This document shows, piece after piece, positions 14,237 through 57,890 of a DNA stretch of 64,000 nt. Position 1 is the stretch's first letter. Each line of letters starts with the position of its first letter. Position numbers and translations under genes: made by a program. The notes under the pieces were generated by a model. It saw only the letters and a program-made list of their open reading frames with translations, searched no databases and was not told the DNA's origin. The DNA is taken from contig CACWNX010000001.1 of NCBI GenBank assembly GCA_902762295.1, positions 532,094 to 596,093 on the forward strand. The letters are read 5' to 3'. The DNA is from an uncultured Pseudomonadota bacterium. GTDB lineage: Bacteria > Pseudomonadota > Alphaproteobacteria > Rs-D84.

Positions 14237-14243
14237 TTATGCT

Positions 14244-16226: not shown

Positions 16227-16347
16227 TGGTTAGCGACGGCGGTTAGTGATTAGTTCATCGGTTGCAAATCGCAACCGATTTTTTTATTGCCCCACATCGC
16301 AAAACACCGGGCATTTGCCCGGTGTTTTGTTGCCCAATATAATTAAA

Positions 16348-41900: not shown

Positions 41901-42042
41901 AAAAACGGTTTGTCAAGTGTTTTTGTCAAAAATTTTTTTAGTCAAACTAAAACCCTTGTTTTCCTAGGAAATACAGCCACTTGTTAGGTTTTTGCGTTGG
42001 GGTTAAAATATCTGTATGTTCAACAATAACCAGGGGGAAAAT

Positions 42043-42809: not shown

Positions 42810-43461
42810 AGTTATTTCTTTTGATAAAATATCCAGTACACAAGATTATGCACACGATATGATTGCGCGTGGTGACGCGTCGGATCATACGGTTGTTGTT
42901 GCAAATGCCCAATATGCCGGCCGTGGGCGATATCGTCGTAAATGGGTCTCGCATCATGGTAATTTGTATGCCAGTTTTGTATTTCTGTCGCCGGAACGTG
43001 ATCCGCGGTTATCCTATGCGGTGGCCGTTGCGATTGTTGATACGATAATGTCATTTGGAATAAATTCGCAAATCAAATGGCCAAATGATATTTTAATCGA
43101 TGGTAAAAAGGTCGCAGGTACCCTGATTGAATATGCCGGGCGATTCGTTATTGTCGGAATTGGCATAAATGTTGGAACAAACCCAACAGTGCCAGAATAT
43201 CAAACCACAAAATTATTAAACTATGCGAATGTTGATTTAAAAGAATTATTTGCGCGATTGGCAAAAAATTTAGATAAATGGTTGTGCGCAGAATTCGATT
43301 CGGTGCGACGTTTCTGGATGGAAACGGCGGTGGGATTAAATAGATTAGTAAAGTATCGGGGTGAAATGGTTGAAATGATTGGGATAAATGACAATGGGGC
43401 ATTGGTGGTTCGACGCGCAACCGAATATTTTTTAATTCATGGTGATGAAGTTTTGATATGA
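42781..43461 (+). CDS. birA: Biotin--protein ligase (group I BirA, no HTH).
   Basis: GRGRYRRKW motif and KWPNDIL. Confidence 0.8.
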   Translation: MGYFRLAGYKVISFDKISSTQDYAHDMIARGDASDHTVVVANAQYAGRGRYRRKWVSHHGNLYASFVFLSPERDPRLSYAVAVAIVDTIMSFGINSQIKWPNDILIDGKKVAGTLIEYAGRFVIVGIGINVGTNPTVPEYQTTKLLNYANVDLKELFARLAKNLDKWLCAEFDSVRRFWMETAVGLNRLVKYRGEMVEMIGINDNGALVVRRATEYFLIHGDEVLI

Positions 43462-43631
43462 TGGATTGCCAAGAAAGCCAAGGTTATTTATAAAGTTCTT
43501 GACTTTTAGTTTGTTTTGTGATATCATAGTTGCTGTCAAAAGAAGAAATTGTGTTCACACATTTGTGTGAATTTTTTTATGCCGCATTTTTACGCGGCAT
43601 TTTTTTATTCATCACGGGGGGACGTTTTATC

Positions 43632-44042
43632 ATGGAATTCAAAGTGATAGAAATACAAAACGAATCGATGGCTTTGGCATATGCGATTGCGCGTGTTGTG
43701 TATGCAGAAACATTGGCAAAATCTTTGCGTGTTGTAGAGGCACTAACATCGATGATTTCAAATATTGTACGATGCGATAATCGCAATATCAAAGATGTAA
43801 TATCTGATAAAACATTATTTGAATCATTAAACAGCGAATCGAATCGTCATAAATTTTTGTCGGTTGATGCGTCGCGTCGTGATTTTCAAATGTGTGTTCG
43901 TGTTGCGCAAACCATGCAGCACGGGTGTTTGCCAGATATGTGTAACCATGCAACACGGTTTCATCGTGATGAATTATTGCCTGAATGGGCGCTTGCGCGG
44001 GGGTATGTTGCCGATATTGATGGAATTTTATTTTATGCGTAA
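43632..44042 (+). CDS. SleB/CwlJ-like cell-wall hydrolase (Hydrolase_2 family).
   Basis: C-terminal pattern ATRFHRDELLPEWALARGYVADIDGILFY, plus N-terminal AIARVVYAE. Confidence 0.5.
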   Translation: MEFKVIEIQNESMALAYAIARVVYAETLAKSLRVVEALTSMISNIVRCDNRNIKDVISDKTLFESLNSESNRHKFLSVDASRRDFQMCVRVAQTMQHGCLPDMCNHATRFHRDELLPEWALARGYVADIDGILFYA

Positions 44043-44054: not shown

Positions 44055-44243
44055 ATGAATAAATTTATTCGTGGTGGATTTTTTGCAAATCGCAAAACAC
44101 AAATTATGACGGTGGTTGGAATTATATCTGCCGTTTGTGCATATTTAGTCGGCGATTCGGATTTGTTTGCTGTAATCCAGGCAATTATTGCGGTTTGCGC
44201 GGTTTATGTGTTGGATAAATCAAAACAAAACAAAGGAAAATGA
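44055..44243 (+). CDS. Small membrane protein (62 aa).
   Basis: One TM (IMTVVGIISAVCAYLV). Overlaps the next gene by ATGA-like coupling. Confidence 0.35.
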   Translation: MNKFIRGGFFANRKTQIMTVVGIISAVCAYLVGDSDLFAVIQAIIAVCAVYVLDKSKQNKGK

Positions 44244-44244: not shown

Positions 44245-44901
44245 ATGGAAAATGTCCCAGAAAAATTTTTAAACAAAGATGGTTCACTTAATGAAGATGC
44301 GTTATTGAAATCATATAACGAATTGGAAAAAAAGATTGGAAATATGGTATCAATTCCAACATCCGATTCTGATGAAGTCGCGCAACGCCGCTTTTTTCGG
44401 GCGATTGGTGTCCCAGAAAGTTCTGATGAATACCCACATAATGAACTTTTTGATGATGAAAATGTCAGGTCAGAATTTCATAAAATCGGATTAACAAACA
44501 ATCAAGTTGAAAAAATTTATAACATCGCCGAAGAATATTTGTCGCCGGTATTATCAGAAATTTTTTCTGCACAACAAGAATCAAATGCAATATCTGAATT
44601 AAAAAAATTTTTCGGGTCTGATGAAAAAATGTACAATGCTTTAATTGAAATTAAATCGTTCGGTGAACGTTTTTTACCAATCGATGCATTCAACGAACTG
44701 TGCGCCAGCGCCCAGGGAATTCAAGGTGTCTATAAGATGATGCAAACAATGGAACCACATGTTGAAACATCGAATGGCGATACAAAAAATTTAACCGATG
44801 ATGATTTACGACGAATGATGCGTGATCCAAAATATTGGCGTGATCATGATGCGGAATATATTCGCAAAATTGAAAACGGATTTAAAAAATTGTATTCATA
44901 A
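44245..44901 (+). CDS. Phage scaffolding-like protein (podovirus gp9-like).
   Basis: Acidic helical protein directly upstream of the capsid gene. The C-terminus RRMMRDPKYWRDHDAEYIRK resembles the remembered T7 gp9 tail. Inference only. Confidence 0.45.
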   Translation: MENVPEKFLNKDGSLNEDALLKSYNELEKKIGNMVSIPTSDSDEVAQRRFFRAIGVPESSDEYPHNELFDDENVRSEFHKIGLTNNQVEKIYNIAEEYLSPVLSEIFSAQQESNAISELKKFFGSDEKMYNALIEIKSFGERFLPIDAFNELCASAQGIQGVYKMMQTMEPHVETSNGDTKNLTDDDLRRMMRDPKYWRDHDAEYIRKIENGFKKLYS

Positions 44902-45018
44902 TGAAAAATTTTTCATAAAAATTTACTTTTCTTCTTTACTATTTTTTTTCTTTAATATAAAATAATAATCAAGAACAAAAGAATTTGTTCTAACCAAAAA
45001 AATACAAAGGAGAGAAGA

Positions 45019-45309
45019 ATGGCATTCACATTCTTGAAAACTGCGGCAAAGAAACCAGCTGCAAAAAAACCGGCGGCCAAGAAACCGGCTGCTAAGAAAC
45101 CTGCTGTAAAGAAAGCGGCTGCGAAAAAACCAGCGGCAAAGAAAGTTGCAGCAAAAAAACCGGCTGCAAAGAAAGTTGCAGCAAAAAAACCGGTTGCAAA
45201 AAAAGTTGCAGTGAAGAAAGTTGCGGCGAAAAAACCGGTTGCAAAAAAAGTTGCGGCAAAAAAACCGGCTGCAAAAAAGCCATGTGCAAAATGTGCAAAA
45301 AGAAAATAA
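45019..45309 (+). CDS. Lys/Ala-rich histone H1/Hc1-like DNA-binding protein (AKKPAAKK repeats).
   Basis: ~18 tandem KKPAA/KKVAA repeats. Cys pair CAKCAKRK at the C-terminus. Confidence 0.6.
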   Translation: MAFTFLKTAAKKPAAKKPAAKKPAAKKPAVKKAAAKKPAAKKVAAKKPAAKKVAAKKPVAKKVAVKKVAAKKPVAKKVAAKKPAAKKPCAKCAKRK

Positions 45310-45536
45310 TCTTGTTTGCAAAATCTGATTAAATGCCCGCATTGCGGGCATTTATCGTTTATAAAAATTTTCAGTCGGATTGTGTATCTGACTGAATTTT
45401 TTTATCTTTGGATAATCCAATTATTTGGACCCAGTTGAATTTATTAATGGCGCTAAACGGCATAACCAAAAATAAATTTTTGGTGGACGAAATATTATTC
45501 GTCCTTTGTTTTAATTTTTTAACAAAAGGAATAATT

Positions 45537-46352
45537 ATGTCTGTTTCCATAGATCAAGCATTTGTGAAACAATTTGAAGCAGATGTCCATCTTGCGTACC
45601 AGCAAATGGGCACAAAACTGCGTTCAACGATTCGCAGTAAATCGGGTGTTGTTGGTGCAACCACAACATTTCAAAAAATTGGTAAAGGCACCGCCAGTAC
45701 AAAGTCACGTCATGGTATTGTGCCGGTAATGAATCTGAATCATACACCGGTGGAATGCACACTGCAAGATTACTATGCAGGCGATTGGGTTGATGCATTG
45801 GACGAATTAAAAATCAATGTTGATGAACGTCGCGTTGTTGCATCCGCGGGTGCATACGCACTGGGGCGCAAGACCGATGAACTGATTATCGCCGCGATGA
45901 ATCAAACAACCCAAAATGTCGGAGATTATTCAACAGGATTGACCAAAGCATTGATTTTAAGCGCATTGGAAAAATTGAATGAAAACGATGTCCCAGATGA
46001 TGGCCGCAGATTTGCAGTTGTTGGTGTACACCAGTGGAATGAACTGTTGGGTATCGCAGAATTTTCATCGGCAGATTATGTCGGTTCTGATTTACCGTTC
46101 ATCACGGGTGGCGAAGGCAAACGATGGTTAGGTATCACATGGTTGTTGCATAACGGATTACCGGTTTCGTCTGATAATCGTGATTGCTTTATTTATCATG
46201 CATCCAGTATTGGACATGCGTGTGGCCAGGAGGTTAAAACCGATATCACATGGCATGGTGAACGTGCCGCGCACTTTATCAGCAACAGTATGTCCCAAGG
46301 GGCGGTTCTGATAGATAACGACGGTATTGTACGTGTTAAATGTGGCGAATAA
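45537..46352 (+). CDS. Phage major capsid protein (T7 gp10-like).
   Basis: AAAGGAATAATT RBS. Patterns KSRHGIVPVMNLNHTP and a C-terminal ...GIVRVKCGE resemble T7 gp10. Position between scaffold and tail-tube genes. Confidence 0.55.
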   Translation: MSVSIDQAFVKQFEADVHLAYQQMGTKLRSTIRSKSGVVGATTTFQKIGKGTASTKSRHGIVPVMNLNHTPVECTLQDYYAGDWVDALDELKINVDERRVVASAGAYALGRKTDELIIAAMNQTTQNVGDYSTGLTKALILSALEKLNENDVPDDGRRFAVVGVHQWNELLGIAEFSSADYVGSDLPFITGGEGKRWLGITWLLHNGLPVSSDNRDCFIYHASSIGHACGQEVKTDITWHGERAAHFISNSMSQGAVLIDNDGIVRVKCGE

Positions 46353-46375
46353 CTCACTAATAACGGGGGTAAAAA

Positions 46376-46606
46376 ATGGCTTTTCAGAATAAAAATTTAT
46401 CGGTAATTGCGTATGCAAACGGATTCACATTGTGGCACTATGTTGCAAATGAAACATTGGCAACAATCATTGCCAGTGGCTATTTTAACATGGTTAAAAC
46501 TTTGATGAATTCAGGTGATATCGTAATCATTAACGCATCAGATAAAACATCAATTAAAAAAATTGTAGTCGGCGATAGCGCGGTAACAACCGGAGCGTTA
46601 GATTAA
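46376..46606 (+). CDS. Hypothetical phage structural protein (76 aa).
   Basis: Follows the capsid gene behind a GGGGG RBS. A terminator hairpin AGGGCCGGATTTTCCGGCCC follows at 46629-46650. Confidence 0.4.
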   Translation: MAFQNKNLSVIAYANGFTLWHYVANETLATIIASGYFNMVKTLMNSGDIVIINASDKTSIKKIVVGDSAVTTGALD

Positions 46607-46682
46607 TAACGATATTAGTTCATAACTTACAGGGCCGGATTTTCCGGCCCAAATTTTAATGTTAGATAACAAAGGTAAAAAA

Positions 46683-47201
46683 ATGCTGACGAAAATAGAT
46701 TTATGTTCAATGGCGTTGTTGAAACTTGGTGAAAACCCAATTCAGTCATTATCGGATGATACCGCCGCGGCGAAACTTGGACGCACATTGATTGATTTTG
46801 TAATAGATACATTATTATCATCGCATCCATGGCGTTTTGCGTGCCGTACATATAATTTAACAAAAGATGAAAACGGTGATTTTAATATTCCGTCCGATGT
46901 ATTGCGTATACTAAAAACCAATGGGCGCATAATGGAAAATCGCGTGGTTTCTGATTCAGATAACATCACAATAACTGCAATTGTGCGTATCGCACCAAAT
47001 GAATTTCCAAGTTATTTTGCATCATTGGTTGCAACAAAACTTGCATCAGAATTTTGTATGCCGTTGATATCAGATACGGCGGTTTTTCGGACATTGGTCG
47101 CACTTTATGAAACAGAATTACAAACCGCAAAATTCATAGACAGCACTACATCGGTCAACCCGGCAATAGAAAACTTTTCTTTGATAGACAGCAGATTTTA
47201 A
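46683..47201 (+). CDS. Tail tubular protein A (T7 gp11-like, gatekeeper).
   Basis: IDLCSMALLKLGENPIQSLSDDTAAAKLGRTLIDFVIDTLLSSHPWRFA parallels the T7 gp11 N-terminus (ILASIGEPPVSTLEGD...ILNKINRQIQSRGWTF). Confidence 0.55.
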   Translation: MLTKIDLCSMALLKLGENPIQSLSDDTAAAKLGRTLIDFVIDTLLSSHPWRFACRTYNLTKDENGDFNIPSDVLRILKTNGRIMENRVVSDSDNITITAIVRIAPNEFPSYFASLVATKLASEFCMPLISDTAVFRTLVALYETELQTAKFIDSTTSVNPAIENFSLIDSRF

Positions 47202-47219
47202 TATCCAAAGGAACTTAAC

Positions 47220-48926
47220 ATGGTGAATTTTATAAAAACACAAACATCATTTGCAAATGGCGAAGTAGCCCCAAACTTTTTTGCAAATTCCGACATTCAT
47301 GGGCTTGCGCGAATGGAAAATATGGATGTTATATCGGGCGGTGGTTTGACCCGTCGTGCAGGATTGAAAAAAATCGCAAAATTATCTGGACCGGCGCGGT
47401 TAATTCCATTTTCTGTATCAGAAACAGAAAATTATACATTAGCAATTATGAACGGTGTTATGCGTATATTCGCAGGCGATACAATCGTCCAAGATATGTT
47501 TGTCCCGTGGTCATATACAGATACAGAATTGCTACAATATTCGCAGAGATTCGGGACAATGATATTTGTTCACCCAAATCATAGACCAAGAATATTATCA
47601 TGCGTAAATGGTGAATTTGACATAAAAAATTTTATTTTCGCATCTTCGGATGATAACGGAAAATATTATATACCGTATATGCGGTTTGAAGATTCAGAAA
47701 ATATAAATATTACAGTCACGTATGATAATGGAAATATTCATTTTATAACCGGTGTTGATTTCTGGACACCGGATAATGTCGGTGGTTATTTATCATTATT
47801 AAATAACAGTTGGCTGGTCACATCATATATTGGACCACGTGATATTATCGCAACAACCAATGGAACATATCTTTTGCCAAATAATCCAATATCAGATTGG
47901 CAAGAGGCCGCGTTCAGCCCACGACGCGGATGGCCGACCAGTATAACATTTCATCAAAACCGACTTGTGTTTGGTGGTTCAAAATCATGGCCAGGTGGTG
48001 TTTGGATGTCACGTGTCGGCGACCATAAAAATTTTGACATCGGTACGGGGCTTGATGACGAAGCAATATACTTTACGTTGTTGTCTGGCAAGCGCCAGCA
48101 TATATGCACGCTGATTAGCAGTGATAATTTGCAAATATTTACATCCGAAGGCGAATGGGCAGTATCAAATAAACCATTAACGCCAGAGTCAGTAGATATA
48201 AAAATGCATACCGCGATTGGCTGCGTCGCCGACCGATATTTGCCACCGCAAATTATGGAGGGAACAACAGTTTTTGTACCCAACAATAAAAAAGATATCA
48301 GAGAACTGGTTCTTGATGATCTTAGTAAAAATTACAATGCAAATAATTTATCGGCATTATCGGAACATTTGATAAATAATCCGATAGATATCGCGTACAA
48401 CAAAAACACCAAAAAATTATTTGTTGTTATGTCAGACGGTAATATGGCGGTATTAAATTGGAATTCAATACTAGAAATTGCGGCATGGGGGCGATACACA
48501 ACAACCGGTAAATTTAAATCTGTGGTGGCATCGGGTGGTGACACTTTTGTTGTGACTGAACGTGGTTCGCAATATTTCCTGGAACGATTTGATGACAACA
48601 CAATGATAGATGCAGGTGAATATCCCTATACAGTTTGTGCACGGGGTTTGCCGTTAATGTCATCAGGTCACAACGCAAAAAACACACGGATTACAAAAAT
48701 TACCGCGCGTGTGCATGATTCCAAGACATTATTTATAAATAATTATCGGGCAGAATTTCCAAATGAAATTTATTCAAATGATTCATCCGGATTTTCTGGG
48801 GACATATCGGTTAATGTACTTGGAACAATCCATGATATGGTTGATGCGCCGTGGGAGATATCAACCTCTGATGCGTTGCCATTGACCGTTTTATCAATCA
48901 CAACATATGGCAGATATCAAATTTAA
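47220..48926 (+). CDS. Tail tubular protein B-like (T7 gp12-like nozzle), shortened.
   Basis: Position after gp11-like. The N-terminal pattern resembles gp12. 568 aa. Confidence 0.45.
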   Translation: MVNFIKTQTSFANGEVAPNFFANSDIHGLARMENMDVISGGGLTRRAGLKKIAKLSGPARLIPFSVSETENYTLAIMNGVMRIFAGDTIVQDMFVPWSYTDTELLQYSQRFGTMIFVHPNHRPRILSCVNGEFDIKNFIFASSDDNGKYYIPYMRFEDSENINITVTYDNGNIHFITGVDFWTPDNVGGYLSLLNNSWLVTSYIGPRDIIATTNGTYLLPNNPISDWQEAAFSPRRGWPTSITFHQNRLVFGGSKSWPGGVWMSRVGDHKNFDIGTGLDDEAIYFTLLSGKRQHICTLISSDNLQIFTSEGEWAVSNKPLTPESVDIKMHTAIGCVADRYLPPQIMEGTTVFVPNNKKDIRELVLDDLSKNYNANNLSALSEHLINNPIDIAYNKNTKKLFVVMSDGNMAVLNWNSILEIAAWGRYTTTGKFKSVVASGGDTFVVTERGSQYFLERFDDNTMIDAGEYPYTVCARGLPLMSSGHNAKNTRITKITARVHDSKTLFINNYRAEFPNEIYSNDSSGFSGDISVNVLGTIHDMVDAPWEISTSDALPLTVLSITTYGRYQI

Positions 48927-48944
48927 TAACTAAAAGGATAAAAA

Positions 48945-49292
48945 ATGGGTCAAATACTTTCAGATGTTAAAGATATATTAAACTATAAAGACATTAAGCA
49001 AGAAGCAAAAACATCCAAAAATAAAATTCTTGAACAGATTTCAAAAGACGATGCCGAAAAAGAGAATCTGATAAAAAAACTTTTGGCATCACAACGTGCT
49101 AAATATGGCGCATCGGGCATGTCGCCAAAAGGATTAACCGAAAAGGCAGTGCTAGAACGTATAAAAGATGAAACCGAAAAACCATATGAAACAAAACGTC
49201 AGACGAATTTGAATAAATTAAAAAATATCAAAACCAAGAAAAAAAATTTATTGGTGTCTGTATTGGAACACATGGACGACTTGATTAAGTAA
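48945..49292 (+). CDS. Hypothetical protein (115 aa, charged, helical); possible small terminase.
   Basis: Immediately precedes the terminase ATPase ORF. Confidence 0.35.
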   Translation: MGQILSDVKDILNYKDIKQEAKTSKNKILEQISKDDAEKENLIKKLLASQRAKYGASGMSPKGLTEKAVLERIKDETEKPYETKRQTNLNKLKNIKTKKKNLLVSVLEHMDDLIK

Positions 49293-49293
49293 T

Positions 49294-49887
49294 ATGAATC
49301 AATATCATCAATTTTTAGATGCCTGGAATTCTGTATTGGGTATGACAACCCCAGCGCATCATTATCGTATGACAGATTTTTTGGTTGATGTTTTAGAAAG
49401 TGATGCACATCGTGGTCTGTTAATGGCATTCCGGCATTCGGGTAAATCAACAATTGTTGGAATATTTGCAACATGTGTATTATTCTTGCGGCCAGAAACG
49501 CGAATTTTAATACTGTCTGCCCAGGCACATCAGGCAACGCGTATGGTTATGCATATTCGTAATATCTTGGAAAATCATCCATGGTGTCGTGATATGATTC
49601 CAAAAAATCGTCGTGAATGGGCGGAAAACAAAATTACAATAAACCGACCAATTGGAATTCGCGAACCATCGGTTGTGTGTCAAGGAATATATGGTAATGT
49701 GACAGGCATGCGTGCAGATTTAATAATTTGCGATGATGTAGAGGTACCCAATACCTGTAATACTGGGCAAAAGCGAACCGCAATACGCGAAAGACTGCGA
49801 GAACTGGATTTTGTGCTCTCACCGAATGGTTCAATGGTTTATATCGGAACACCGCACACATTGGATACAATATACCGAACAAATTAA
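49294..49887 (+). CDS. Phage terminase large subunit, N-terminal ATPase fragment.
   Basis: Walker A AFRHSGKST, Walker B LIICDDVE, coupling motif YIGTP. The ORF ends at 49887 before any nuclease domain. Confidence 0.6.
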   Translation: MNQYHQFLDAWNSVLGMTTPAHHYRMTDFLVDVLESDAHRGLLMAFRHSGKSTIVGIFATCVLFLRPETRILILSAQAHQATRMVMHIRNILENHPWCRDMIPKNRREWAENKITINRPIGIREPSVVCQGIYGNVTGMRADLIICDDVEVPNTCNTGQKRTAIRERLRELDFVLSPNGSMVYIGTPHTLDTIYRTN

Positions 49888-50537
49888 ATGCTAGTACCGT
49901 TTTTTTGTATATTCAAAATGTCGTGCAGTTTATCCAAAATTTGATGTCCCGCTTCACCAAACATCGGCAGATATGTTTCATATTCCAACATATCAACCTG
50001 TAATTGCGCGCGTGCGCGGTCATTTATTGGATTTGATATGATATTATTTGCACTGTCCCATGCGCGATAGGCATTCCATGTCCGAACGACATCGTCAAAG
50101 CGTTCAAGTTCGGTCGGATTATTACCTAATGCGCTTTGGGTCAGTGCAATCCAATTTGTGCCGAATTTTTTGATAACAGGATTTTTCATAAAATTGTTCA
50201 GGCCATCTTGATTAGGGGTAAATACATTAACCGCCGCAATTAGCTGTTTGATATCTTCGGATGAAATATCTATATTCAGTGTTGCATCAACCATCATCCC
50301 GCCATACGGCAATAATTCACGCGCAATGGAATCCATTGGGGTTTCACCCGAACGCAGATTTTTAATGTGTTCAACCAGCATTTTACCCGTTGGTAAATTT
50401 ACCAGTTCGCGCATAACATCTTCGGTGGCTTCGTCCATGAAAACAGGATTCAACACCGCCCAGCCACCGTCTATAACATGCGCCTGGCGGTATAGATTTA
50501 ATAACTTTTGTGCGGTGACACTGGCCTTTGCTTTCAT
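49884..50537 (-). CDS. Hypothetical protein (217 aa) within the terminase-interrupting module.
   Basis: ORF from the track, antisense to the phage structural genes. Confidence 0.5.
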   Translation of the reverse strand: MKAKASVTAQKLLNLYRQAHVIDGGWAVLNPVFMDEATEDVMRELVNLPTGKMLVEHIKNLRSGETPMDSIARELLPYGGMMVDATLNIDISSEDIKQLIAAVNVFTPNQDGLNNFMKNPVIKKFGTNWIALTQSALGNNPTELERFDDVVRTWNAYRAWDSANNIISNPINDRARAQLQVDMLEYETYLPMFGEAGHQILDKLHDILNIQKNGTSI

Positions 50538-50567
50538 CTCGATTATCCCCTCCTTGGTCGGTTTAAT

Positions 50568-51578
50568 TTATTCTGTAATGACCATAATAACCCGATGCAT
50601 GGTTTGGTATGAGATTTTTTCCTCTGGTGCCATCATTTGCCCATACAGATTGCCTTTGGAATCACGACGCACAACGGCGATATTCGCGGTCGCCGCATCG
50701 TCAGGTTTTAACGTGTTAAAGTCGGCATCAATAAAGACCGCCAAATCGCCAACATTAACCGGTGACTTTATATCGGCAAAGACATAAGATTTCTCGGGAA
50801 TAACCCCGCCAAGCCTTTTAGAATTCGGCACAACCGCATATATACCGCGTCGTCCTTCAAGATTTGCGGGTGCAACAATCATATTTGTATCAGATTTCTT
50901 GAACGATATTGATTTGCCTTCGGGTTTACCGAATACCGGAACCAGTTTTTTGCGTGCGTTTTCATACAATTTTGCACCATACATGTGACCACGGGTATCG
51001 CCCAAATCGACCGGCGAATCACCCGGTATCAGAACTGCGGTGACCTTTTCTTTGACTTTGTTCATTTGTTTGGTCAATTCGCCCGATTTGTACAGTGTGG
51101 CGATTTTATCAAACATGCCTTCAACCGATTGTGCAAATGAACGCGCCAATGGCTCAATTTCATTTTTATACACTTCGCGTTGTCCGACCTCTATCTTGTG
51201 ATACACGGACAGTGTCATACCTGCGTCTTTTGCGGCCTGTGCAATGGTTTTGCCAGATTGCTGGCGGATTTTACGTAAACCGCTGCCGAATATTTTTAAG
51301 CCACTGTCCTCGTTGTCGGCCATACGGCGTTTAATTTCACTCTGCCATTTGGTGGCGACATCATCGGTATCTTTGATAAAAATATCGGATAATTTACAGC
51401 CCAATATGTTGCAGATATTTAATAACTGCTTTTGATTTAAACGGCGAACACCTTTCTCAATCTTAGATACCGCCGACAAAGACAAATTTGAACGACGCGC
51501 CAGTTCGGTCATTTTCATTCCTGCGGCCAGACGAATATTGCGAATGTTGTTTGGAAAGATGATTTCTTCTTGGGCCAT
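50568..51578 (-). CDS. Tandem-HTH (two XRE-type domains) regulator with a C-terminal domain; phage CI-like repressor candidate.
   Basis: AAGGAG RBS, start MAQEEIIF. HTH 1 IRNIRLAAGMKMTELARRSNLSLSAVSKIEKG. HTH 2 LRKIRQQSGKTIAQAAKDAGMTLSVYHKIEVG. Confidence 0.6.
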   Translation of the reverse strand: MAQEEIIFPNNIRNIRLAAGMKMTELARRSNLSLSAVSKIEKGVRRLNQKQLLNICNILGCKLSDIFIKDTDDVATKWQSEIKRRMADNEDSGLKIFGSGLRKIRQQSGKTIAQAAKDAGMTLSVYHKIEVGQREVYKNEIEPLARSFAQSVEGMFDKIATLYKSGELTKQMNKVKEKVTAVLIPGDSPVDLGDTRGHMYGAKLYENARKKLVPVFGKPEGKSISFKKSDTNMIVAPANLEGRRGIYAVVPNSKRLGGVIPEKSYVFADIKSPVNVGDLAVFIDADFNTLKPDDAATANIAVVRRDSKGNLYGQMMAPEEKISYQTMHRVIMVITE

Positions 51579-51680
51579 AGTAAACTCCTTAGTAAATCTT
51601 GACAAAATAATAGTCAAATTTATAAAACTTGGCAAGTAAAAAGTTAATACTGGTTGGTAAAAAACAGATACCACTAACCA

Positions 51681-53222
51681 CTAGTCTATATCGTCTGGAA
51701 TTGCGGATAAATCAATTGGGACGGCATCAGGTGCATCCGATGTCGGTTCCGGTGCATCATCAACAAATTGTGGCACACGATTCGCCATGTCGTCCAGATT
51801 ATCAAACAAACTGTATTCGGCCAAGAATGCAACATTTACTGTATCGGTTCGGCCATGACGGTTTTTACCAATAATGATATCGGCTTTGCCACGTGATTTT
51901 TCCAAGCGCTTTTCCCACGAATCTTTGGATTTATCACTTGGAGTATTAGAAAGCCGGAATGATGGATCACGATTCGTTAAATAATATTCTTCGCGATATG
52001 TGAACATCACAATGTCGGCATCTTGTTCAATAGACCCAGATTCACGCAAATCGGCCAACTGGGGGCGTTTGTCATCCCGGGATTCAACACTGCGTGATAA
52101 TTGAGACAATGCAACCACCGGAACATTAAATTCTTTGGCCAGCATTTTTAAACTGCGTGTAATTTCAGATAATTCTTGGACACGATTATCTTTGTTTTTT
52201 CCGCCCGGTGAAGTCAGCAATTGCAGATAATCAACCACAATCAGTGCAATACCGTTATACTTTCGTGCCAATCGCCGTACACGCGTGCGAATCATCGGTA
52301 CCGACATCCCCGGTGTATCATCAATGAATAACGGAATACGACTTATCGCATCAGAAAATTGAGTCATTTTTAGAAAGTCTTCATCGGTCAGCGAACCTTC
52401 ACGCATTGCAGATGCCGGAATTCGTGATTGAGATGATAATACACGTGCCGCCAATTCAGATGCACCCATTTCAAGGCTGAAAAACGCAACCGCACCCTTA
52501 TATTGGCTGTTTGCACGACCAGAAAAGATTGCGTTTGCGGCATTGAATGCAATGTTTAGTGCCAATGCGGTTTTACCCATACCTGGGCGGCCGGCGATAA
52601 TCAACAGATTTGATTTATGCATGCCACTAATTGCACGATCCAAATCGGTCAACCCCGTGGTAAGCCCCGACAGTTTTCCATCGGCCTTGTATGCGATTTC
52701 TGCCTCAATCAAGGCATCTTTTAACGCATTTGCAATTGGTGTGACATCGCGCCCGGTATCACCAACGGTTGCAAGGTTGAATAATTTTTGTTCGGCAACT
52801 TCTATCTGGGTGGAAACCGGATTATCCAGGTCTTCCACAAATGCGGCATCGGTAATTCCCTGACCCAGGTTGATAAGTTCGCGCCGCAACGCATTGTCAT
52901 GCACGATACGACCGTATTGTTCAACATTTACCACCGTCGCCCCGGCCCCAGCCAACTGAGTCAGATAATCAACACCACCAACCGATTCCAATGTTCCCTG
53001 TTGGTCAAGGTAATTTTTAATTGTAATGATGTCAAACGGGATACCCGCCGCAAAGTGGCGCATAGCCAATTTATAAATTTCTTGGTGCGCGGGATGCGAA
53101 AAATCTTCGGGTTTTAAGAATTCAGAAATTTTTTCCAATGCCCGATTGTTCATCAGAACCGCGGCCAACACGGCCTGTTCGGCTTCTAAATTCGTTGGTA
53201 AAGTTTTGGGAGTGAAGTCCAT
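51681..53222 (-). CDS. DnaB-family replicative DNA helicase (~505 aa from Met MDFTPKT).
   Basis: N-terminal LEAEQAVLAAVL, Walker A GRPGMGKTALALNIA, Walker B IVVDYLQLL. The track ORF extends 77 codons further upstream, likely beyond the real start. Confidence 0.8.
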   Translation of the reverse strand: MDFTPKTLPTNLEAEQAVLAAVLMNNRALEKISEFLKPEDFSHPAHQEIYKLAMRHFAAGIPFDIITIKNYLDQQGTLESVGGVDYLTQLAGAGATVVNVEQYGRIVHDNALRRELINLGQGITDAAFVEDLDNPVSTQIEVAEQKLFNLATVGDTGRDVTPIANALKDALIEAEIAYKADGKLSGLTTGLTDLDRAISGMHKSNLLIIAGRPGMGKTALALNIAFNAANAIFSGRANSQYKGAVAFFSLEMGASELAARVLSSQSRIPASAMREGSLTDEDFLKMTQFSDAISRIPLFIDDTPGMSVPMIRTRVRRLARKYNGIALIVVDYLQLLTSPGGKNKDNRVQELSEITRSLKMLAKEFNVPVVALSQLSRSVESRDDKRPQLADLRESGSIEQDADIVMFTYREEYYLTNRDPSFRLSNTPSDKSKDSWEKRLEKSRGKADIIIGKNRHGRTDTVNVAFLAEYSLFDNLDDMANRVPQFVDDAPEPTSDAPDAVPIDLSAIPDDID

Positions 53223-54069
53223 GTCAGATATAGTATATGAAAAAAATGTTTTTTCAACGCCTTTTTTATCGGGGTATATGGAATTAAAAATACCAATACT
53301 GGATTCAAACGGAAATTCCGCGTGGCCGGCGGTTTTCCCGCTTGAAAAGATAGAACAAATTCGCAAAACCGTTGGCGAACGGTACTTTTCGGCCCAGATG
53401 ATGCTGAAATTCGTTGCACCCGAACGGATTCGGTTGGACCCAGGCGGAATCAAATTCTATGACAATGAATATGATGTACGAAATTCACGAATCGGCGAAC
53501 ACTTTATCACCGGCGCGTGCGTATATTGGGATCCATCCGGCGGGCGACGTGGTGGCGACAACAGTGTGTGCGCAATGATATACCGCGATGACAATAATCA
53601 TTGCGTGTTTATTCACGATATAATGTATATCGTTGTTCCCGAAAATACGGATTATCCATTGGCATACCAATGCGATTCAGTGCTGTCATTTGTACGGCGA
53701 CATAAAATGCGTGTTTTGGCACTGGAAACAAACGGACTAGGAAATGCATTACCCGAGATAATGCGTACGACGATTGACCGTGCCGGATACAGTATTCAAA
53801 TTCGTCCGATTACAAATTCACGTCGCAAAGAAGACCGAATATTGGATGCAATAGAACCATTGCTGTCAACTGGTCGATTATATGCACACAAACGAATCAC
53901 CCAGACCCCGTTTATATCAGAAATGTTATCTTGGTCGCCAATGGGTGCCCCAGAACATGATGACGGATTAGATGCGGTGTCGGGCGCGATTACTGGAAAT
54001 CCGATTGCGTTGCATCCGATTGGTTCATCGCTGAACCGATATACCGCAAACACAGATTTCAAAATTTAA
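53221..54069 (+). CDS. Phage terminase large subunit, C-terminal nuclease fragment.
   Basis: GGAGTGAAG RBS with ATG at 53221 (MSDIVYEK). RNaseH-like nuclease patterns VYWDPSGGRRGGD and HDDGLDAVSGA. The track ORF begins at 53146, overlapping dnaB. Confidence 0.5.
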   Translation: MSDIVYEKNVFSTPFLSGYMELKIPILDSNGNSAWPAVFPLEKIEQIRKTVGERYFSAQMMLKFVAPERIRLDPGGIKFYDNEYDVRNSRIGEHFITGACVYWDPSGGRRGGDNSVCAMIYRDDNNHCVFIHDIMYIVVPENTDYPLAYQCDSVLSFVRRHKMRVLALETNGLGNALPEIMRTTIDRAGYSIQIRPITNSRRKEDRILDAIEPLLSTGRLYAHKRITQTPFISEMLSWSPMGAPEHDDGLDAVSGAITGNPIALHPIGSSLNRYTANTDFKI

Positions 54070-54093
54070 CAACATAACCAAAAAGGAATAAAT

Positions 54094-55320
54094 ATGAAAT
54101 ATGATTTACAACAAATGTATGTGCGCGCATTGGCACTGCGTGAACCATGGATTCGGCGTTGGACTGATGCACGCAGATATACAATGCCATCAACAGATTC
54201 AGACATGGCAACATTGTTTGATGCAACCGCATCTGATGCCGCGGATAACCTTGCAGCATGTATGTATTCATTACTGACACCGCCAGAATCGCTGTGGTTG
54301 ACCCTGGTTCCCGAAGGGCCCGATTCGCCCAATGCAGAAATCGCGACGGCGGCACTGCGCGCGAATCTGAACGAATCAAATTTTTATACAACCGTGCACC
54401 AGTGTTATATGGATTTGGTCACCCTTGGGACGGCGTGTTTGTTTATGTCGGAAAATCCGATTGGTGCCGCCAGTGCGTTTTCTTTTACCGCAATCCCAAT
54501 GCAAGACATCGCGATTTTGCCGAATGCAGTATTTCATACGGCGACAATGACAGCAGTGGATATTATACAAAAATATCCAGATTGGACACCGCCACGTGAA
54601 ATAATGGATAAAATGAAACAGAATCCCGAATACCAATTACGCATGGTTCAGTCGTTGGTTGATACAGAATTCACAGCATGGATAGATGTTGGTGGTGATA
54701 TTGAAAATAATATCGTTGCACACGGAACATTTGAAACGAACCCATATTTGATATTCCGGTGGGCGGTGGCCAGTGGTGAATTGTACGGTATGGGACCGGT
54801 GATTCGTGCATTACCCGATATTAAAACGGCAAACAAAGTCGTTGAATTGGTATTGAAAAACGCGACAATCGCGGTTAGTGGTATTTGGCAGGCCGATGAT
54901 GATGGTGTTATAAACCTTGGCAATATCAATTTAACACCGGGTGCAATTATTCCCAAGGCCGTGGGCAGCAGTGGTCTGACCCCGCTGACCAGTGGTGCGA
55001 ATTTTGATGTATCACAAATTGTATTAAAAGATTTGCGTGAACGGATTCGTCATACATTATTGGCAGATCGAATCGGGTTATTGTCAGACAAAGAAATGAC
55101 GGCAACTGAAATTCTGGCGCGCAACGCAGATATGTTGCGTATTTTGGGTGCAACATATGGGCGATTACTGCATGAATTTATTCGCCCGTTGTGTGATCGT
55201 GGACTTCAGATACTATCGCGGCGCGGCGTAATAGATAAAATATCATTACACAGTGATGCGGAATTAAAATACATTGCGCCAATTGCGAAAATGGTTGCCG
55301 ACAATGAAACACTGATTTAG
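54094..55320 (+). CDS. Phage portal (head-tail connector) protein, T7 gp8-like.
   Basis: LREPWIRRWTDARRYTMPSTDSD parallels the T7 gp8 N-terminus (RAPYETRAQNCAQYTIPSLFPKDSD). 408 aa. Confidence 0.5.
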   Translation: MKYDLQQMYVRALALREPWIRRWTDARRYTMPSTDSDMATLFDATASDAADNLAACMYSLLTPPESLWLTLVPEGPDSPNAEIATAALRANLNESNFYTTVHQCYMDLVTLGTACLFMSENPIGAASAFSFTAIPMQDIAILPNAVFHTATMTAVDIIQKYPDWTPPREIMDKMKQNPEYQLRMVQSLVDTEFTAWIDVGGDIENNIVAHGTFETNPYLIFRWAVASGELYGMGPVIRALPDIKTANKVVELVLKNATIAVSGIWQADDDGVINLGNINLTPGAIIPKAVGSSGLTPLTSGANFDVSQIVLKDLRERIRHTLLADRIGLLSDKEMTATEILARNADMLRILGATYGRLLHEFIRPLCDRGLQILSRRGVIDKISLHSDAELKYIAPIAKMVADNETLI

Positions 55321-55334
55321 CAAAGGGGGCGAGC

Positions 55335-55541
55335 ATGGAAAAAAATGAAATTGCCTATGCGCGAACATTTTTAACCCCATCGGGTCACGCAGTACTGGAA
55401 CATCTGCGTAAAATAACGATTGAACGCGTACTGGGACCAAATGCAACCGAATCAGAATTACGAACGGTTGAAGGTATGCGTGCATTGGTTCATCAAATTG
55501 AAAACATGGTTGAACGGGGGCGCGATAATGCAAAGATATAA
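55335..55541 (+). CDS. Hypothetical small phage protein (68 aa).
   Basis: ORF from the track. Confidence 0.35.
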   Translation: MEKNEIAYARTFLTPSGHAVLEHLRKITIERVLGPNATESELRTVEGMRALVHQIENMVERGRDNAKI

Positions 55542-55785
55542 CGGATTATCGGGTATTATTGACACATTGCGCAGTGGTTGGTTTCTAATTGCGTTTATCG
55601 CAGGACTGATTTACTGGGTTGCGCGTCAAGATAATGCACTTGTTGAATTGGACCGGTTGACGGTTCGTATGACGACATTGGAAAATCGCACAACGGTTCT
55701 TGAAAGTGGAATAGGGCAATTACAATTAAAAATAGATGCCATCAAGGAAGATTTAACACTGATAAAAACCGCGGTTATAAAGTAA
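55529..55785 (+). CDS. Small membrane/coiled-coil protein (85 aa), holin-like.
   Basis: TM WFLIAFIAGLIYWV followed by a coiled coil. Overlapping start. Terminator downstream. Confidence 0.35.
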
Positions 55786-55787
55786 AA

Positions 55788-55828
55788 AAATCCCACAGAA
55801 TTTTTTTCTGTGGGATTAGATTTTTTTT
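55788..55828 (+). terminator. Rho-independent terminator, end of the phage-like module.
   Basis: CCCACAG-N9-CTGTGGG hairpin plus T8. Confidence 0.65.
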
Positions 55829-56067: not shown

Positions 56068-56424
56068 TTAAAATGCGTTTTTTATCCATTTGATATGAAA
56101 TCCGTGCACGATAATTACATCAAATCGTGAATCGCCGTGCCAATGTTTTTCAATTAAATATGTTTCCGCCGCCGCACGCAGTCGCCGAATCTGGGGTGTC
56201 GTAATTGCATCCCATGCGGCGTTTATGGTTTTACGGTGTTTAACCTCTATAAACACAATTAAATTTCTGCGTTGTGCGATAATATCAATTTCGGCGCGAT
56301 TTGTATAACGTCCGGTTATGTATCGCCGCCGCACAATCCGAAACCCATGCAGTATCAAATACGCGCATGCCAATATCTCTGAAAATATGCCGGTTTTATA
56401 CGAATCCATTTTACTAAAACGCAT
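56068..56424 (-). CDS. YraN-family (UPF0102) endonuclease-like protein.
   Basis: GEIDII...FIEVKHR pattern. 118 aa. Confidence 0.65.
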   Translation of the reverse strand: MRFSKMDSYKTGIFSEILACAYLILHGFRIVRRRYITGRYTNRAEIDIIAQRRNLIVFIEVKHRKTINAAWDAITTPQIRRLRAAAETYLIEKHWHGDSRFDVIIVHGFHIKWIKNAF

Positions 56425-57250
56425 ACGGTTTTACCGCAAAGTTTTCTTGGGATTGTTCAATATTCAAAGAACTGTCTTCGGCATTACGGCCACAGTCCGT
56501 CAATTCTAATTCACCATAATATGCCGTCATCATCGGGTCATATGCATTATCAGAACTTGCCCATTTATCAGAATCGGCATTCGGTGCGCCATATTTTTCA
56601 ATTACATTTTGCCACCATGACATGATTTTTTTATCGCGTTGATTTGCAAACTTTTCAGCATCGCCCTCTATTTCGTCGACATCGTTTTTATATACAATTT
56701 TCCATACGACATTATCGGTGGCGTTGCTGGTAAAATATACATCAATTGTTTCGCCTGTTGATGATCGAACCAGGTGCAATTCCGATGCGTACAATACACC
56801 ACGATTTCGTGCCAATGAATTTATACACTGATCCAATCGTTTCGGTATAACAATATTTTGTTGTCGGCATTCATAGTCCAAACTGTATTTCCAATCGGGA
56901 TGCATAGAATAAACAACCGCATCCTTTGGACGATTCGTATACAGACCATTTTCACGCACAACCATTTGAACTTCGTCAAAATTCATCCCCAACATAATCC
57001 CCAGAATATCAAAATTTCCGACCGCAACCGGCGATGCACCTGGATTTATTGCAACATTTGTCATATCGCAACCCAATTTCGTCATATCGTTATTTGTTTC
57101 AATAGTATAGTCATCAGATGTCTCAAACTCGGCATCACCAAAATCGTTGAAATCAAATTCATCCGCCACTGCAAATGGTGTCACCAGAAAAATCATACCA
57201 ACAAAAATCAACAAATGTTTCATTGAACTAATCCTTTTCAAACTGAACAT
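56414..57250 (-). CDS. Secreted protein (278 aa) with signal peptide; possible VirB9-like periplasmic component.
   Basis: Signal peptide MKHLLIFVGMIFLVTPFAVA. Acidic N-terminal region. No firm motif. Confidence 0.5.
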   Translation of the reverse strand: MFSLKRISSMKHLLIFVGMIFLVTPFAVADEFDFNDFGDAEFETSDDYTIETNNDMTKLGCDMTNVAINPGASPVAVGNFDILGIMLGMNFDEVQMVVRENGLYTNRPKDAVVYSMHPDWKYSLDYECRQQNIVIPKRLDQCINSLARNRGVLYASELHLVRSSTGETIDVYFTSNATDNVVWKIVYKNDVDEIEGDAEKFANQRDKKIMSWWQNVIEKYGAPNADSDKWASSDNAYDPMMTAYYGELELTDCGRNAEDSSLNIEQSQENFAVKPYAF

Positions 57251-57890
57251 CGTTTACCCGAAATACAAACCACAAGGCCGGATTTGCACCTATTTCTGAT
57301 GCATATTGAATATTTTCAATGGGTCTAATACCTTGCGAAATATCGCCCAGGCTAATATACATCCGCCCGCGCGTGATTTCGGGAACCTGGTCCATATCAT
57401 TTGGTTTATACCATGTTTTTAGTTCGTATTCAACCATGTAATAATCACTGTCGGGTGTGGGACGCACAATTTCATCAAAAACCGTTACAGTACGCATAAC
57501 ACCATTTTCGGCCATTTTATGAATTTTTTGCGCTTCGCCACTGACCCAGTCTTTAAACACATTTGAACGATGATCTGACATATAATATAAAATCGCTTTT
57601 ATATTTCCTGCCTGTTCGCGCATTGCAATATTTTCAACATCGGGTACAACATAGAAATATTCGTTCACAAATTTCTGAATCAACCAATCACGCAACCGTC
57701 GTTGACCAACTTCGTCAACACTGCGTGGAACATCTGATGCCGATACCCCTGTCAACGATGTGCGCAGAAAATATGGTTCAATGGTCATCTTGTCTGCATT
57801 GTCATATAATCCGGCCGCAACAAATACCATTGCAAAAACTGCAATCAGTGTCACAAGTCCGATAATATATCCCAATAATCGTTTCATCAT
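57228..57890 (-). CDS. Bitopic membrane protein (220 aa), VirB8/DotI-like topology.
   Basis: N-terminal TM LLGYIIGLVTLIAVFAMVFVAAG, then a periplasmic domain with a C-terminal NPALWFVFRV pattern. Confidence 0.5.
   Translation of the reverse strand: MMKRLLGYIIGLVTLIAVFAMVFVAAGLYDNADKMTIEPYFLRTSLTGVSASDVPRSVDEVGQRRLRDWLIQKFVNEYFYVVPDVENIAMREQAGNIKAILYYMSDHRSNVFKDWVSGEAQKIHKMAENGVMRTVTVFDEIVRPTPDSDYYMVEYELKTWYKPNDMDQVPEITRGRMYISLGDISQGIRPIENIQYASEIGANPALWFVFRVNDVQFEKD

Follow-up and report, generated by a model that had tools for sequence, protein, structure and literature searches.

Gene transfer agents (GTAs) are known from only a few independent domestications, and their prevalence in the gut microbiome is an open question. 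Clusters of the RcGTA type are retained even in reduced genomes (PMC9254644). FpGTA of Faecalibacterium prausnitzii, a GTA-like element of the gut that is described as 'most likely podovirus-like' and for which sequencing of encapsidated DNA found random host DNA, has been called the first podovirus-like GTA-like element (PMC12946183). The subject here is a cluster of T7-type phage genes in a 64,000-nucleotide stretch of an uncultured alphaproteobacterium (contig CACWNX010000001.1 of assembly GCA_902762295.1, positions 532,094 to 596,093; this whole stretch is called the window below), with its structural module at 44245-55828. The three formally recognised GTA families are unrelated to this element in architecture. 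We read it, with a probability of roughly 0.6, as the domesticated remnant of a temperate podovirus, GTA-like and with a structural module of the T7/HTVC010P kind, that has become chromosomally fixed in Candidatus Enterousia and related genome-reduced Alphaproteobacteria (Rs-D84 and its neighbours). The window's proteins occur in rumen assemblies, and its host is a rumen Candidatus Enterousia of the order Rs-D84. Members of Enterousia, in this uncultured order, have genomes of 0.75-1.0 Mb and lack the tricarboxylic acid (TCA) cycle and respiratory chains (PMC12306168).

Gene content and the fixed locus

Gene identities come from profile hidden Markov model searches (Pfam, PHROG, NCBIfam), a listing of open reading frames (ORFs) and a sequence search of the PDB. 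An earlier note on this DNA had named scaffold, capsid, tail-tube A and B, terminase and portal genes while allowing that profile searches might fail to support them; all of these assignments are now backed by profiles, including those of the capsid (PF19821), portal (PF12236) and terminase (PF22530/phrog_38). Its picture of one phage stretch of about 11.5 kb beginning at 44245 did not hold, since only ~8.8 kb of the 11.5 kb is phage-derived, the remainder being three minus-strand genes between the terminase parts, and since the unit begins farther to the left, where an endolysin, a membrane protein of 62 amino acids (aa), a promoter and two terminators (43499-43600) and a helix-turn-helix (HTH) remnant lie upstream of 44245. 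The features are as follows.

42016-42291, plus strand: 91-aa HTH protein, HTH domain only, remnant of a LexA/S24-type repressor
From 42354, plus strand: orf42354, 151 aa, between the repressor remnant and birA
42781-43461, plus strand: birA, biotin-protein ligase (PF03099)
43632-44042, plus strand: SleB/Hydrolase_2-type endolysin, 136 aa (phrog_938, E 6e-6)
44055-44243, plus strand: 62-aa membrane protein, holin candidate, with a hydrophobic segment seen in the sequence
44245-44901, plus strand: T7-type scaffold (capsid assembly) protein, 218 aa (PF05396, E 3e-10)
45019-45309, plus strand: histone H1/Hc2-like AKKPAAKK-repeat protein, 96 aa (PF07382)
45537-46352, plus strand: major capsid protein, 271 aa (PF19821, E 2e-75; phrog_3437, E 6e-73)
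46376-46606, plus strand: 76-aa protein, p76 (phrog_18004), following the capsid gene in nearly all relatives
46659-47201, plus strand: tail tubular protein A or adaptor, gp11-like (PF17212; phrog_394, E 2e-31)
47220-48926, plus strand: nozzle, gp12-like, 568 aa (phrog_376, E 6e-84; PDB 8ck1_A 'Tail Nozzle', E 1e-27)
48945-49292, plus strand: 115-aa protein, p115, a conserved post-nozzle gene
49294-49887, plus strand: TerN, N-half of the large terminase TerL, ATPase core, 197 aa (phrog_38 positions 288-459, E 7e-38)
49884-50537, minus strand: p217, all-helical, 217 aa, inside the split terminase
50568-51578, minus strand: HTH2, 336 aa, two XRE-type HTH domains (PF01381 twice)
51681-53222, minus strand: dnaB, host-type replicative helicase, 513 aa (NF006606 equivalog)
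53221-54069, plus strand: TerC, C-half of TerL, 282 aa, the rest of the ATPase domain and an RNase H-like nuclease
54094-55320, plus strand: T7-type portal, gp8-like, 408 aa (PF12236, E 3e-80; phrog_332)
55335-55541, plus strand: Bbp19-like small phage protein (PF25181, E 1e-10)
55528-55785, plus strand: 85-aa protein, p121, lysis-associated candidate with an N-terminal transmembrane segment and a coiled coil
55789-55828: hairpin terminator closing the cluster (hairpin 55789-55817 plus T-run), preceded by an A-run and so bidirectional by shape

The earlier note had proposed a domesticated particle system in place of a complete prophage, and comparison with related genomes bears this out. One genome per GTDB species was scanned; 541 genomes were matched by the capsid, and the best 80 of the 541 were examined. 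These 80 are Candidatus Enterousia or alphaproteobacterial metagenome-assembled genomes (MAGs) from the rumen or gut (cattle, yak, goat, deer, horse, rabbit, chicken). The gene order is that of the window in each of the 80 loci long enough to show it, including the minus-strand genes within the terminase: from the left the HTH gene, orf42354, birA, endolysin, holin candidate, scaffold, capsid, p76, adaptor, nozzle, p115 and TerN, then p217, HTH2 and dnaB on the minus strand, followed by TerC, portal, the Bbp19-like gene and p121. (The histone-like gene in the scaffold-capsid interval was established in a search separate from this comparison.) The ORFs are intact, in 80/80 loci for the capsid, 77/77 for TerN and 74/75 for TerC. 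The flanks are housekeeping genes that recur across species, LpxI, a tRNA methyltransferase and birA on the left and YraN, BamA and RseP on the right. Among the ORFs scanned between 37.8 and 62.2 kb, Pfam, PHROG and NCBIfam revealed no integrase and no gene for replication, excision, core or fibre. Queries taken from relatives (fibre, TerS-position gene, lysozyme and others) found no match in any part of the 64-kb window. Within the cluster itself the profile searches of the ORFs gave no polymerase, core or fibre gene, as the earlier note had also observed.

Even against the closest species the synonymous distance dS is 0.7 to >2 (>1 for most genes), that is, near or at saturation. The nonsynonymous distance dN is low in every gene (0.04-0.3 overall, with dN/dS ~0.04-0.2): 0.043 for the capsid, 0.08 for TerN, 0.085 for dnaB, 0.09 for the portal, 0.16 for birA, 0.2 for TerC and 0.22 for the nozzle. 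The capsid evolves more slowly than any other of the 19 genes compared, with a dN half that of DnaB. In pairwise protein distances the genes of the element follow birA and dnaB with Pearson coefficients of 0.78-0.87, the value for dnaB against birA being 0.81. Proteins differ by 17-50% among the loci, which excludes the origin of all of them from one recent clone. It is almost certain, then, that the host owns this cluster and that selection maintains it as a T7-type system for head, neck, packaging and lysis.

A functionless, decaying cryptic prophage, kept only because the essential genes dnaB and birA are embedded in it, would account for the disappearance of most phage functions and for a terminase whose interruption looks at first sight like disruption. 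Entanglement of that sort guards against deletion but not against point mutation, and yet the ORFs are intact in ~75-80 species; dN/dS is as low as just stated, the catalytic motifs of the terminase are kept, regulatory hairpins covary, and all this in genomes that are under strong reduction (PMC12306168). We regard that explanation as very improbable. A larger, intact prophage of which the cluster would be one arm, a case for which the earlier note had allowed, is hardly credible, given housekeeping genes on both flanks that recur across species and fibre, TerS-position and lysozyme queries that come up empty throughout the window. Intact ORFs, saturated dS with low dN, co-divergence and host flanks together exclude both of these readings.

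An element like the capsid-forming phage-inducible chromosomal islands (PICIs), making its own head and neck, drawing fibres, core and perhaps replication from a helper podovirus and still spreading horizontally, would have about this size (~9-13 kb) and this combination of head and packaging genes without fibre or core, and IMG/VR does file many of the loci as ~10-kb proviruses. The cluster has, however, no integrase, replication or primase gene, no repeats at the edges of the dnaB insert (the repeat scan was confined to those edges) and no tRNA beside it in the window. Position and order do not vary among the loci of 80 species, dS is saturated, the element co-diverges with host genes, and essential host genes are interleaved with it (dnaB and birA; ftsZ in L172, where L-numbers are labels of related loci and L172 is scaffold_111 of ENA ERZ16268197). 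A satellite is therefore quite improbable. Of the three labels that the earlier note offered, GTA, tailocin and satellite, GTA-like is the best: capsid, scaffold, portal and terminase are present and tail tube and sheath genes are not, so that head, portal and terminase exclude a tailocin, and the fixed, vertically inherited locus disfavours a satellite.

The capsid has 4684 database homologs, the best 120 of which are 76-100% identical (nearly all at least 82%) and lie in some cases on contigs of up to 1 Mb. IMG/VR lists many such loci as 10.0-10.8 kb proviruses that start exactly at the capsid gene (L092, L099, L100, L106-L113 and others). As independent phage genomes these entries were rejected, being ~10-kb provirus cuts of the chromosomal cluster. 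The filing of such loci as proviruses in viral databases means that virus counts for rumen and gut samples are inflated.

Some of the individual assignments need comment. The endolysin matches PF07486-annotated genes of L083, L084, L086 and L088 in tblastn (E 1e-8 to 1e-11). The holin candidate adjoins it in 65 loci, and profile searches gave no family match for this 62-aa protein. Scaffold homologs lie before the capsid gene in all relatives, and the Pfam matches of the capsid are PF19821 and, weakly, PF25209, with no others. The profile match of the adaptor begins at its residue 9, and its real start may be 46683. The nozzle, at 568 aa, compares with 634-638 aa in less reduced relatives; its homologs match PF25675. 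Homologs of p115 follow the nozzle gene in L085, L087, L088, L171 and L173, and the Pfam and PHROG searches gave no family match for it. TerC matches PF22530 (T7 RNaseH-like), PF17289 and phrog_38 positions 481-703. The Bbp19-like gene comes after the portal gene in relatives also. The holin-like small protein and the terminator that the earlier note placed at the end of the cluster correspond to p121, conserved in 67 loci and with a weak XhlA match (PF10779, E 0.005), and to the closing hairpin with its T-run. Farther out, three adjacent minus-strand proteins to the right of YraN (278, 220 and 234 aa; 56414-58591) have no Pfam match, and their homologs adjoin yraN in several other loci; to the left of the region lies a T2SSE-type secretion ATPase (37817-38812, minus strand).

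The divided terminase and its host genes

The earlier note had read a terminase ATPase gene followed by a terminase nuclease gene. The identities stand; the adjacency does not. The two are separate cistrons 3.3 kb apart, TerN ending in a stop codon at 49885-49887 and TerC beginning with a new ATG at 53221, with the three minus-strand genes between them, and ATPase and nuclease are thus not in one polypeptide here, unlike in the ordinary TerL. The junctions are tight: the stop codons of TerN and p217 overlap in the palindrome TTAA, and the start codons of dnaB and TerC overlap in the palindrome CATG (53220-53223). The TerC ATG and the residues that follow it (..NVFSTPFLSGY..) are conserved across related genomes, and in the window a GGGAG Shine-Dalgarno-like motif, which coincides with the reverse complement of the conserved dnaB codons MDFTP, precedes it. 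Its own conserved ATG and this motif argue that TerC is translated on its own; public gene calls likewise give TerC as 282 aa.

Alignment with the intact terminases of relatives places the fission point in a variable loop just past the GTP motif, where the intact proteins read YIGTPHNYYTIYQTEVDPAKPETEPFL and the split form reads YIGTPHTLDTIYRTN, then a stop, plus MSDIVYEKNVFSTPFL. The two halves sum exactly to an intact TerL, with no residues lost or extra. TerN aligns to residues up to ~205 of the relatives' intact TerL, and most of its closest relatives have 450-515 aa, as an intact TerL does (50%-identity representatives; 1.84 billion clusters). The intact TerL of L083, to which both halves align, matches structures of T7 gp19 (4bij, 8dgc) at E ~1e-19. 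The Walker A, Walker B and GTP motifs (SGKST, DDVE, GTPH) are kept in 78/78 TerN sequences and the nuclease motifs WDPS and DDG.DA in 75/75 TerC sequences.

Four lineages share this break point but differ in the genes that intervene: dnaB alone, co-directional, in L085; a 901-aa protein and dnaB on the opposite strand in L171; tRNA-Phe, ftsZ and the portal gene in L172 (14812-20515); and dnaB, HTH2 and p217 on the opposite strand in the Enterousia type. The same break, with varying genes in the insert and with both halves kept, implies that the fission is old and independent of what intervenes. That is the strongest argument available for a terminase working as two polypeptides, and we infer that the enzyme is functional as two separately translated chains. 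Two observations on these loci may be added. In L172 accB-accC lie directly upstream of the lysis genes, so that essential host genes are again nested in the element, and in L085 the spacers around the co-directional dnaB (14604-14745 and 16297-16432) contain duplicated ~40-nt units and hairpins.

Ways of restoring a single chain were considered and rejected. Rfam at E <= 1 gave no group I or group II intron in 41.5-56.5 kb; an intein has no extra residues and no room, and TerN has its stop codon and TerC its own conserved ATG; and an insert that inverts or is excised lacks flanking direct or inverted repeats and a recombinase gene. The orientation of the insert is identical in 76/76 Enterousia-type loci.

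The genes within the insert look like host genes. DnaB scores 600.6 bits against NF006606, the host equivalog, with a cutoff of 540, and lies below the phage_DnaB cutoff in NCBIfam, and its candidacy as a phage helicase was dropped for that reason. HTH2 is 67-86% identical across species, a family search with its C-terminal domain found nothing, and descent from the S24 repressor was rejected, there being no detectable similarity. For p217, 990 homologs were found at E <= 0.001, the few named sources being alphaproteobacterial MAGs; it has no Pfam, PHROG or NCBIfam match, and its AF2 model (pLDDT 82) has no fold match in the PDB. Host genes are interleaved at two places, because birA and orf42354 stand behind the HTH remnant just as dnaB and its neighbours stand within the terminase. 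In most loci orf42354 and birA keep their place, with the HTH remnant on one side and the lysis/structural operon on the other. The left flank differs in L004 and L014, where the break falls between birA and the endolysin; the endolysin and the 62-aa membrane protein remain with the cluster despite that change. (A by-eye impression that orf42354 is a winged-helix protein was given up, neither Pfam nor the PDB sequence search backing it.)

The arrangement raises a question of transcription. A promoter-like site, TTGAAA-16-TACTAT (53230-53257, minus strand), lies within the first TerC codons and in 51/75 loci ends 7 nt before the dnaB ATG, so that the dnaB mRNA is probably leaderless. In Enterousia, TerC and portal can be expressed only from transcripts that run antisense to dnaB. 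The two may interfere with each other, but such interference cannot be a general feature, dnaB being co-directional in L085. An internal promoter for TerC and portal (52572-52601, plus strand, ~630 nt upstream, in 41/75 loci) was judged unconvincing, lying as it does within conserved dnaB codons.

Control signals, the histone-like gene and the reduction series

The spacer between birA and the endolysin holds a sigma-70-type promoter with an extended -10 element, TTGACT-17-TGnTATCAT (43499-43527, plus strand), in which, across 43 aligned species, TTGAC never varies and the TG and TAnnnT positions vary little or not at all. It is followed on the same strand by two tandem intrinsic terminators in the leader (region 43553-43608; hairpins 43553-43572 and 43579-43600, each with a T-run). 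Leader terminators are found in 60/60 loci, at a mean of 1.9 per locus, as against 1/60 on the other strand, and the RNAalifold consensus of the leader hairpins has 13 pairs, with compensatory changes in 13/13. Similar structures recur within the operon. Two terminator-like hairpins follow the histone-like gene (45330-45396, plus strand), and the scaffold-capsid interval has plus-strand terminator-like sites in 67/67 loci (the count on the minus strand is inflated by the repeats). A GC-rich terminator-like hairpin follows capsid and p76 (46632-46650, plus strand) in 61/80 loci, against 18/80 on the other strand, a position matched by the T-phi terminator of T7, which sits after gene 10. Before the capsid gene lies a further conserved element (45430-45500, plus strand), GGAYAATCC..GGACCC and TGGCGC..GCATAACCA, at least 85% conserved across loci and predicted to form two short stems with 14 pairs, 10 of them with compensatory changes; it has no Rfam match. 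The layout of promoter and terminators appears to be that of a late operon gated by antitermination.

The earlier note had drawn attention to a histone H1/Hc1-like AKKPAAKK-repeat gene between scaffold and capsid and thought it unusual. Its PF07382 match and its position are confirmed: an AKK/P-repeat ORF of 38-164 aa lies there in 66/66 Enterousia-type loci, in most cases with the N-terminus MAFTFLK and a Cys-containing C-terminus, and the gene holds the same place in three deeper relatives. Among the architectures examined the gene is present only where TerL is split (L085 and L172 are examples); in the canonical-order locus L082 the corresponding spacer is 35 bp and leaves no room for it. 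It is clearly part of the system. Its ancestry is less certain. The protein scores 52.7 bits against PF07382 (HC2; cutoff 40), and 44 and 40 against NCBIfam H1-like models whose cutoffs are 80 and 135. The repeats are of low complexity, so that homology to chlamydial Hc2 is uncertain and the similarity may be compositional. That the protein is packaged, condenses DNA or eases the work of the split motor is speculation. A 142-aa ORF antisense to the gene (window 44923-45351, minus strand) is a mirror artefact of the repeats, and public gene calls sometimes annotate such a mirror ORF in place of the histone-like gene (L087, 9368-9772, minus strand). In L085 the histone-like gene is separated from the capsid gene by an insertion (8176-9711) that codes for a 256-aa protein and a DUF5131 protein.

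The nearest phage is Pelagibacter phage Hodr EXVC031P, with 46% identity in the capsid and 32% in the portal, and TerN is 34% identical to a T7-like cyanopodophage TerL. The capsid is homologous to, and as long as, its counterpart in a 34-kb phage. Hodr has the order TerL-portal-scaffold-capsid-p76-adaptor-nozzle, of which the order in the window is a circular permutation; the permutation of the T7 order that the earlier note had proposed is displayed directly by relatives of the element in which TerL, portal, scaffold, capsid, adaptor and nozzle stand in canonical order.

These relatives form a series. The loci L173, L086 and L088, of ~13 kb, have an S24 repressor, a gene at the TerS position (phrog_31793), an intact TerL (495-499 aa), a Hydrolase_2 endolysin, portal, scaffold, capsid, adaptor and nozzle, and a fibre with a T7 gp17-type N-domain (278-620 aa overall; 363-620 aa in L086 and L173). 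GTA_holin_3TM is additionally present in L086 and L173, and L173 has a fibre-assembly protein besides. L083 and L084 resemble these three loci but lack the fibre, and L082 (MT838907.1), an unverified human faecal fragment, has the canonical order from portal to nozzle. In L085, L171, L172 and the Enterousia-type loci the scaffold gene comes first and is followed by the histone-like gene, and TerL is divided at one and the same loop. Every variant lies among host genes, and none contains integrase, replication or core/ejection genes. A fibre stub of ~180 aa persists between p115 and TerN in 33/80 species and is lost in the window's lineage; in L038 (~13760-14310) and 32 other loci of L031-L080 this stub amounts to the T7 gp17-type N-terminal adaptor-binding domain and a short coiled coil. 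No small terminase could be put forward: the gene upstream of TerL in relatives is phrog_31793, which occurs neither in the window nor in any of the 80 loci, and p115 is the post-nozzle gene instead.

The repressor is reduced in parallel. In the less reduced relatives a LexA/S24-type repressor gene is divergently oriented beside the cluster, PF00717 being listed for L086, L088 and, weakly, L173. The 91-aa HTH protein of the window is 43-49% identical to the N-terminal part of these ~206-211-aa repressors (L083, L084, L086, L088, L173) and, with a median dN of 0.12, is the region's second most conserved gene. The S24 catalytic motif (GDSMEP..K) is kept in L086 (4773-5402), the serine motif is apparently lost from the L083 repressor (2555-3175; a by-eye reading), and in the window there is only the HTH domain. 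Motif kept, then serine lost, then HTH alone suggests a stepwise loss of SOS-type control.

Function and the known systems compared

What such a system would do for its host may be sketched as follows. The kept set (endolysin, small membrane proteins, scaffold, capsid, portal, adaptor, nozzle, a few small proteins and a terminase in two pieces, ATPase core on the one hand and lid and nuclease on the other) comprises only what builds and fills a head and lets a particle leave the cell. Integrase, replication genes, ejection/core proteins, the TerS-position gene and, in this lineage, the fibre have been lost, and a gene for a histone H1-like basic protein has been gained by the head module. The near-consensus promoter would fire constitutively, its transcripts being halted at the two leader terminators until an antitermination signal permits read-through of these and of the terminators that follow the histone-like and capsid genes, the later terminators perhaps also setting protein ratios. 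In a few cells particles would then be built and packed by the headful mechanism with any DNA available, which is to say the host chromosome, and these cells would lyse, the element thereby acting as a GTA-like viriform. It has the marks of one, being a chromosomal phage-derived cluster that is vertically inherited and under purifying selection, with no self-propagation functions found. DNA-filled particles released by a lysing subpopulation are the most likely function in view of the constraint on DNA-translocating and DNA-cutting residues, portal, adaptor and nozzle. GTA-like function is further supported by the loss of the TerS-position gene and by a capsid as long as that of the 34-kb phage, from which, if T=7 has been retained, a headful would exceed the element several-fold.

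Several considerations weigh against this. The particles, their content and any transfer of DNA, and equally the activity of a two-polypeptide terminase, are deduced here from genes. For this lineage the 64-kb window shows neither a fibre nor anything else recognisable as a receptor-binding protein, and no small terminase. Nor are there ejection proteins, so that delivery would have to rely on the recipient. No antiterminator, Q-like or GafYZ-like protein was identified here. A capsid so strongly conserved might have been kept for some purpose other than the transfer of DNA. Finally, 64 kb is what is visible, and a fibre and regulators may lie elsewhere in the genome, which could change the picture.

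Particles and lysis module might indeed serve no transfer at all, but rather programmed lysis of a subpopulation that releases DNA or nutrients, a defective PBSX-like particle that takes in DNA without delivering it, or a container for protein or DNA within the cell. The fibre is progressively lost, from 363-620 aa in L086 and L173 through a stub in 33/80 species to none in the window, ejection proteins are present in no variant, lysis genes head the operon, and the constraint on the capsid is unusually strong. There is also the weak match of p121 to XhlA, a protein that acts in the PBSX lysis system, although Pfam describes it only as a haemolysin. Against this stand a portal, adaptor, nozzle and both terminase halves with intact motifs, all under purifying selection, a constraint intelligible only for a system that packs DNA into a closed head sealed by its neck. 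RcGTA and other known GTAs are also without injection machinery and depend on uptake by the recipient. We consider a non-transfer role rather unlikely and return to the GTA-like remnant as the preferred reading.

Should that reading hold, it is tempting, if still doubtful, to see here a fourth independent GTA lineage, the first of the T7/podovirus type in Alphaproteobacteria, present in every Candidatus Enterousia-type genome examined, with a terminase in two polypeptides that predates the group's diversification, with dnaB or ftsZ nested in it, with a co-opted and perhaps packaged histone H1-like protein, and with expression gated by read-through. The searchable literature holds no description that links Enterousia or Rs-D84 to a GTA, a capsid cluster or phage-like particles, and likewise none of the element under a split terminase with dnaB or under MT838907; the element family, and especially its split-terminase, histone-bearing branch, appears to be undescribed. 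At least 80 species that have dispensed with respiration, the TCA cycle and most transporters keep a T7-type cluster intact, with a capsid that evolves more slowly than DnaB, and this speaks for particles that are of importance to the cells. One plausible benefit would be an exchange of DNA to counter mutational decay where populations are small and possibly host-dependent. The split terminase is a natural experiment, a viral packaging ATPase/nuclease divided inside its ATPase domain and yet maintained, and the histone-like gene is a rare case of recruitment into a tailed-phage head module. The related loci provide a comparative data set for the stepwise reduction of a prophage to an organelle-like host system (repressor from S24 to HTH only; fibre to stub to none).

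Among described systems RcGTA (Rhodogtaviriformidae) is like the element in being a chromosomal, vertically inherited head and packaging cluster of ~10-15 kb. It too lacks genes for replication and integration, is under purifying selection and depends on lysis for release, and some relatives of the element (L086, L173) carry Pfam GTA_holin_3TM. RcGTA makes a siphovirus-type particle with a long tail and tape measure and a TerL of a different clade. The element, in contrast, has a PF19821 capsid, T7-type portal, adaptor, nozzle and TerL, the latter split, and a histone-like gene, and lacks tail tube and tape measure; the function of RcGTA has been demonstrated, whereas the element is known through its genes. 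BaGTA (Bartogtaviriformidae) also belongs to a host-associated alphaproteobacterial lineage, co-evolves with its host and has a link to replication (its run-off replication origin), but it has 29 genes in ~79 kb, has been reported only from Bartonella and has no T7-type portal or nozzle reported, and it is set apart on the strength of its description. FpGTA, placed beside the element likewise by description only, differs in its Bacillota host and its two separate loci.

The HTVC010P-type pelagiphages and T7-like podoviruses share with the element homologous scaffold, capsid, p76, adaptor, nozzle and portal proteins and a T7-type TerL. They are phages of 34-45 kb with replication and fibre genes, whereas the element has ~9 kb and is permuted, interleaved with host genes and fixed. 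In the late operon of lambda, PR' is followed by tR' and then by lysis and head genes, under antitermination by Q. A strong promoter, immediate terminators and lysis and head genes are common to both systems, and in the element further terminators lie within the cluster. For the Caulobacter GTA, control through GafYZ is reported to act by transcriptional activation and anti-termination (PMC11150451).

Coding parts of a packaging ATPase/nuclease that lie kilobases apart with opposite-strand genes between them are found also in herpesvirus UL15 (which appears in PMC6843332). UL15 is spliced, whereas in the element there is neither an intron signature nor room for an intein. The two exons of UL15 lie around UL16 and UL17 on the opposite strand, and splicing of the mRNA yields one polypeptide. 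The stop codon of TerN and the separate ATG of TerC mean that the element makes two polypeptides, unlike UL15.

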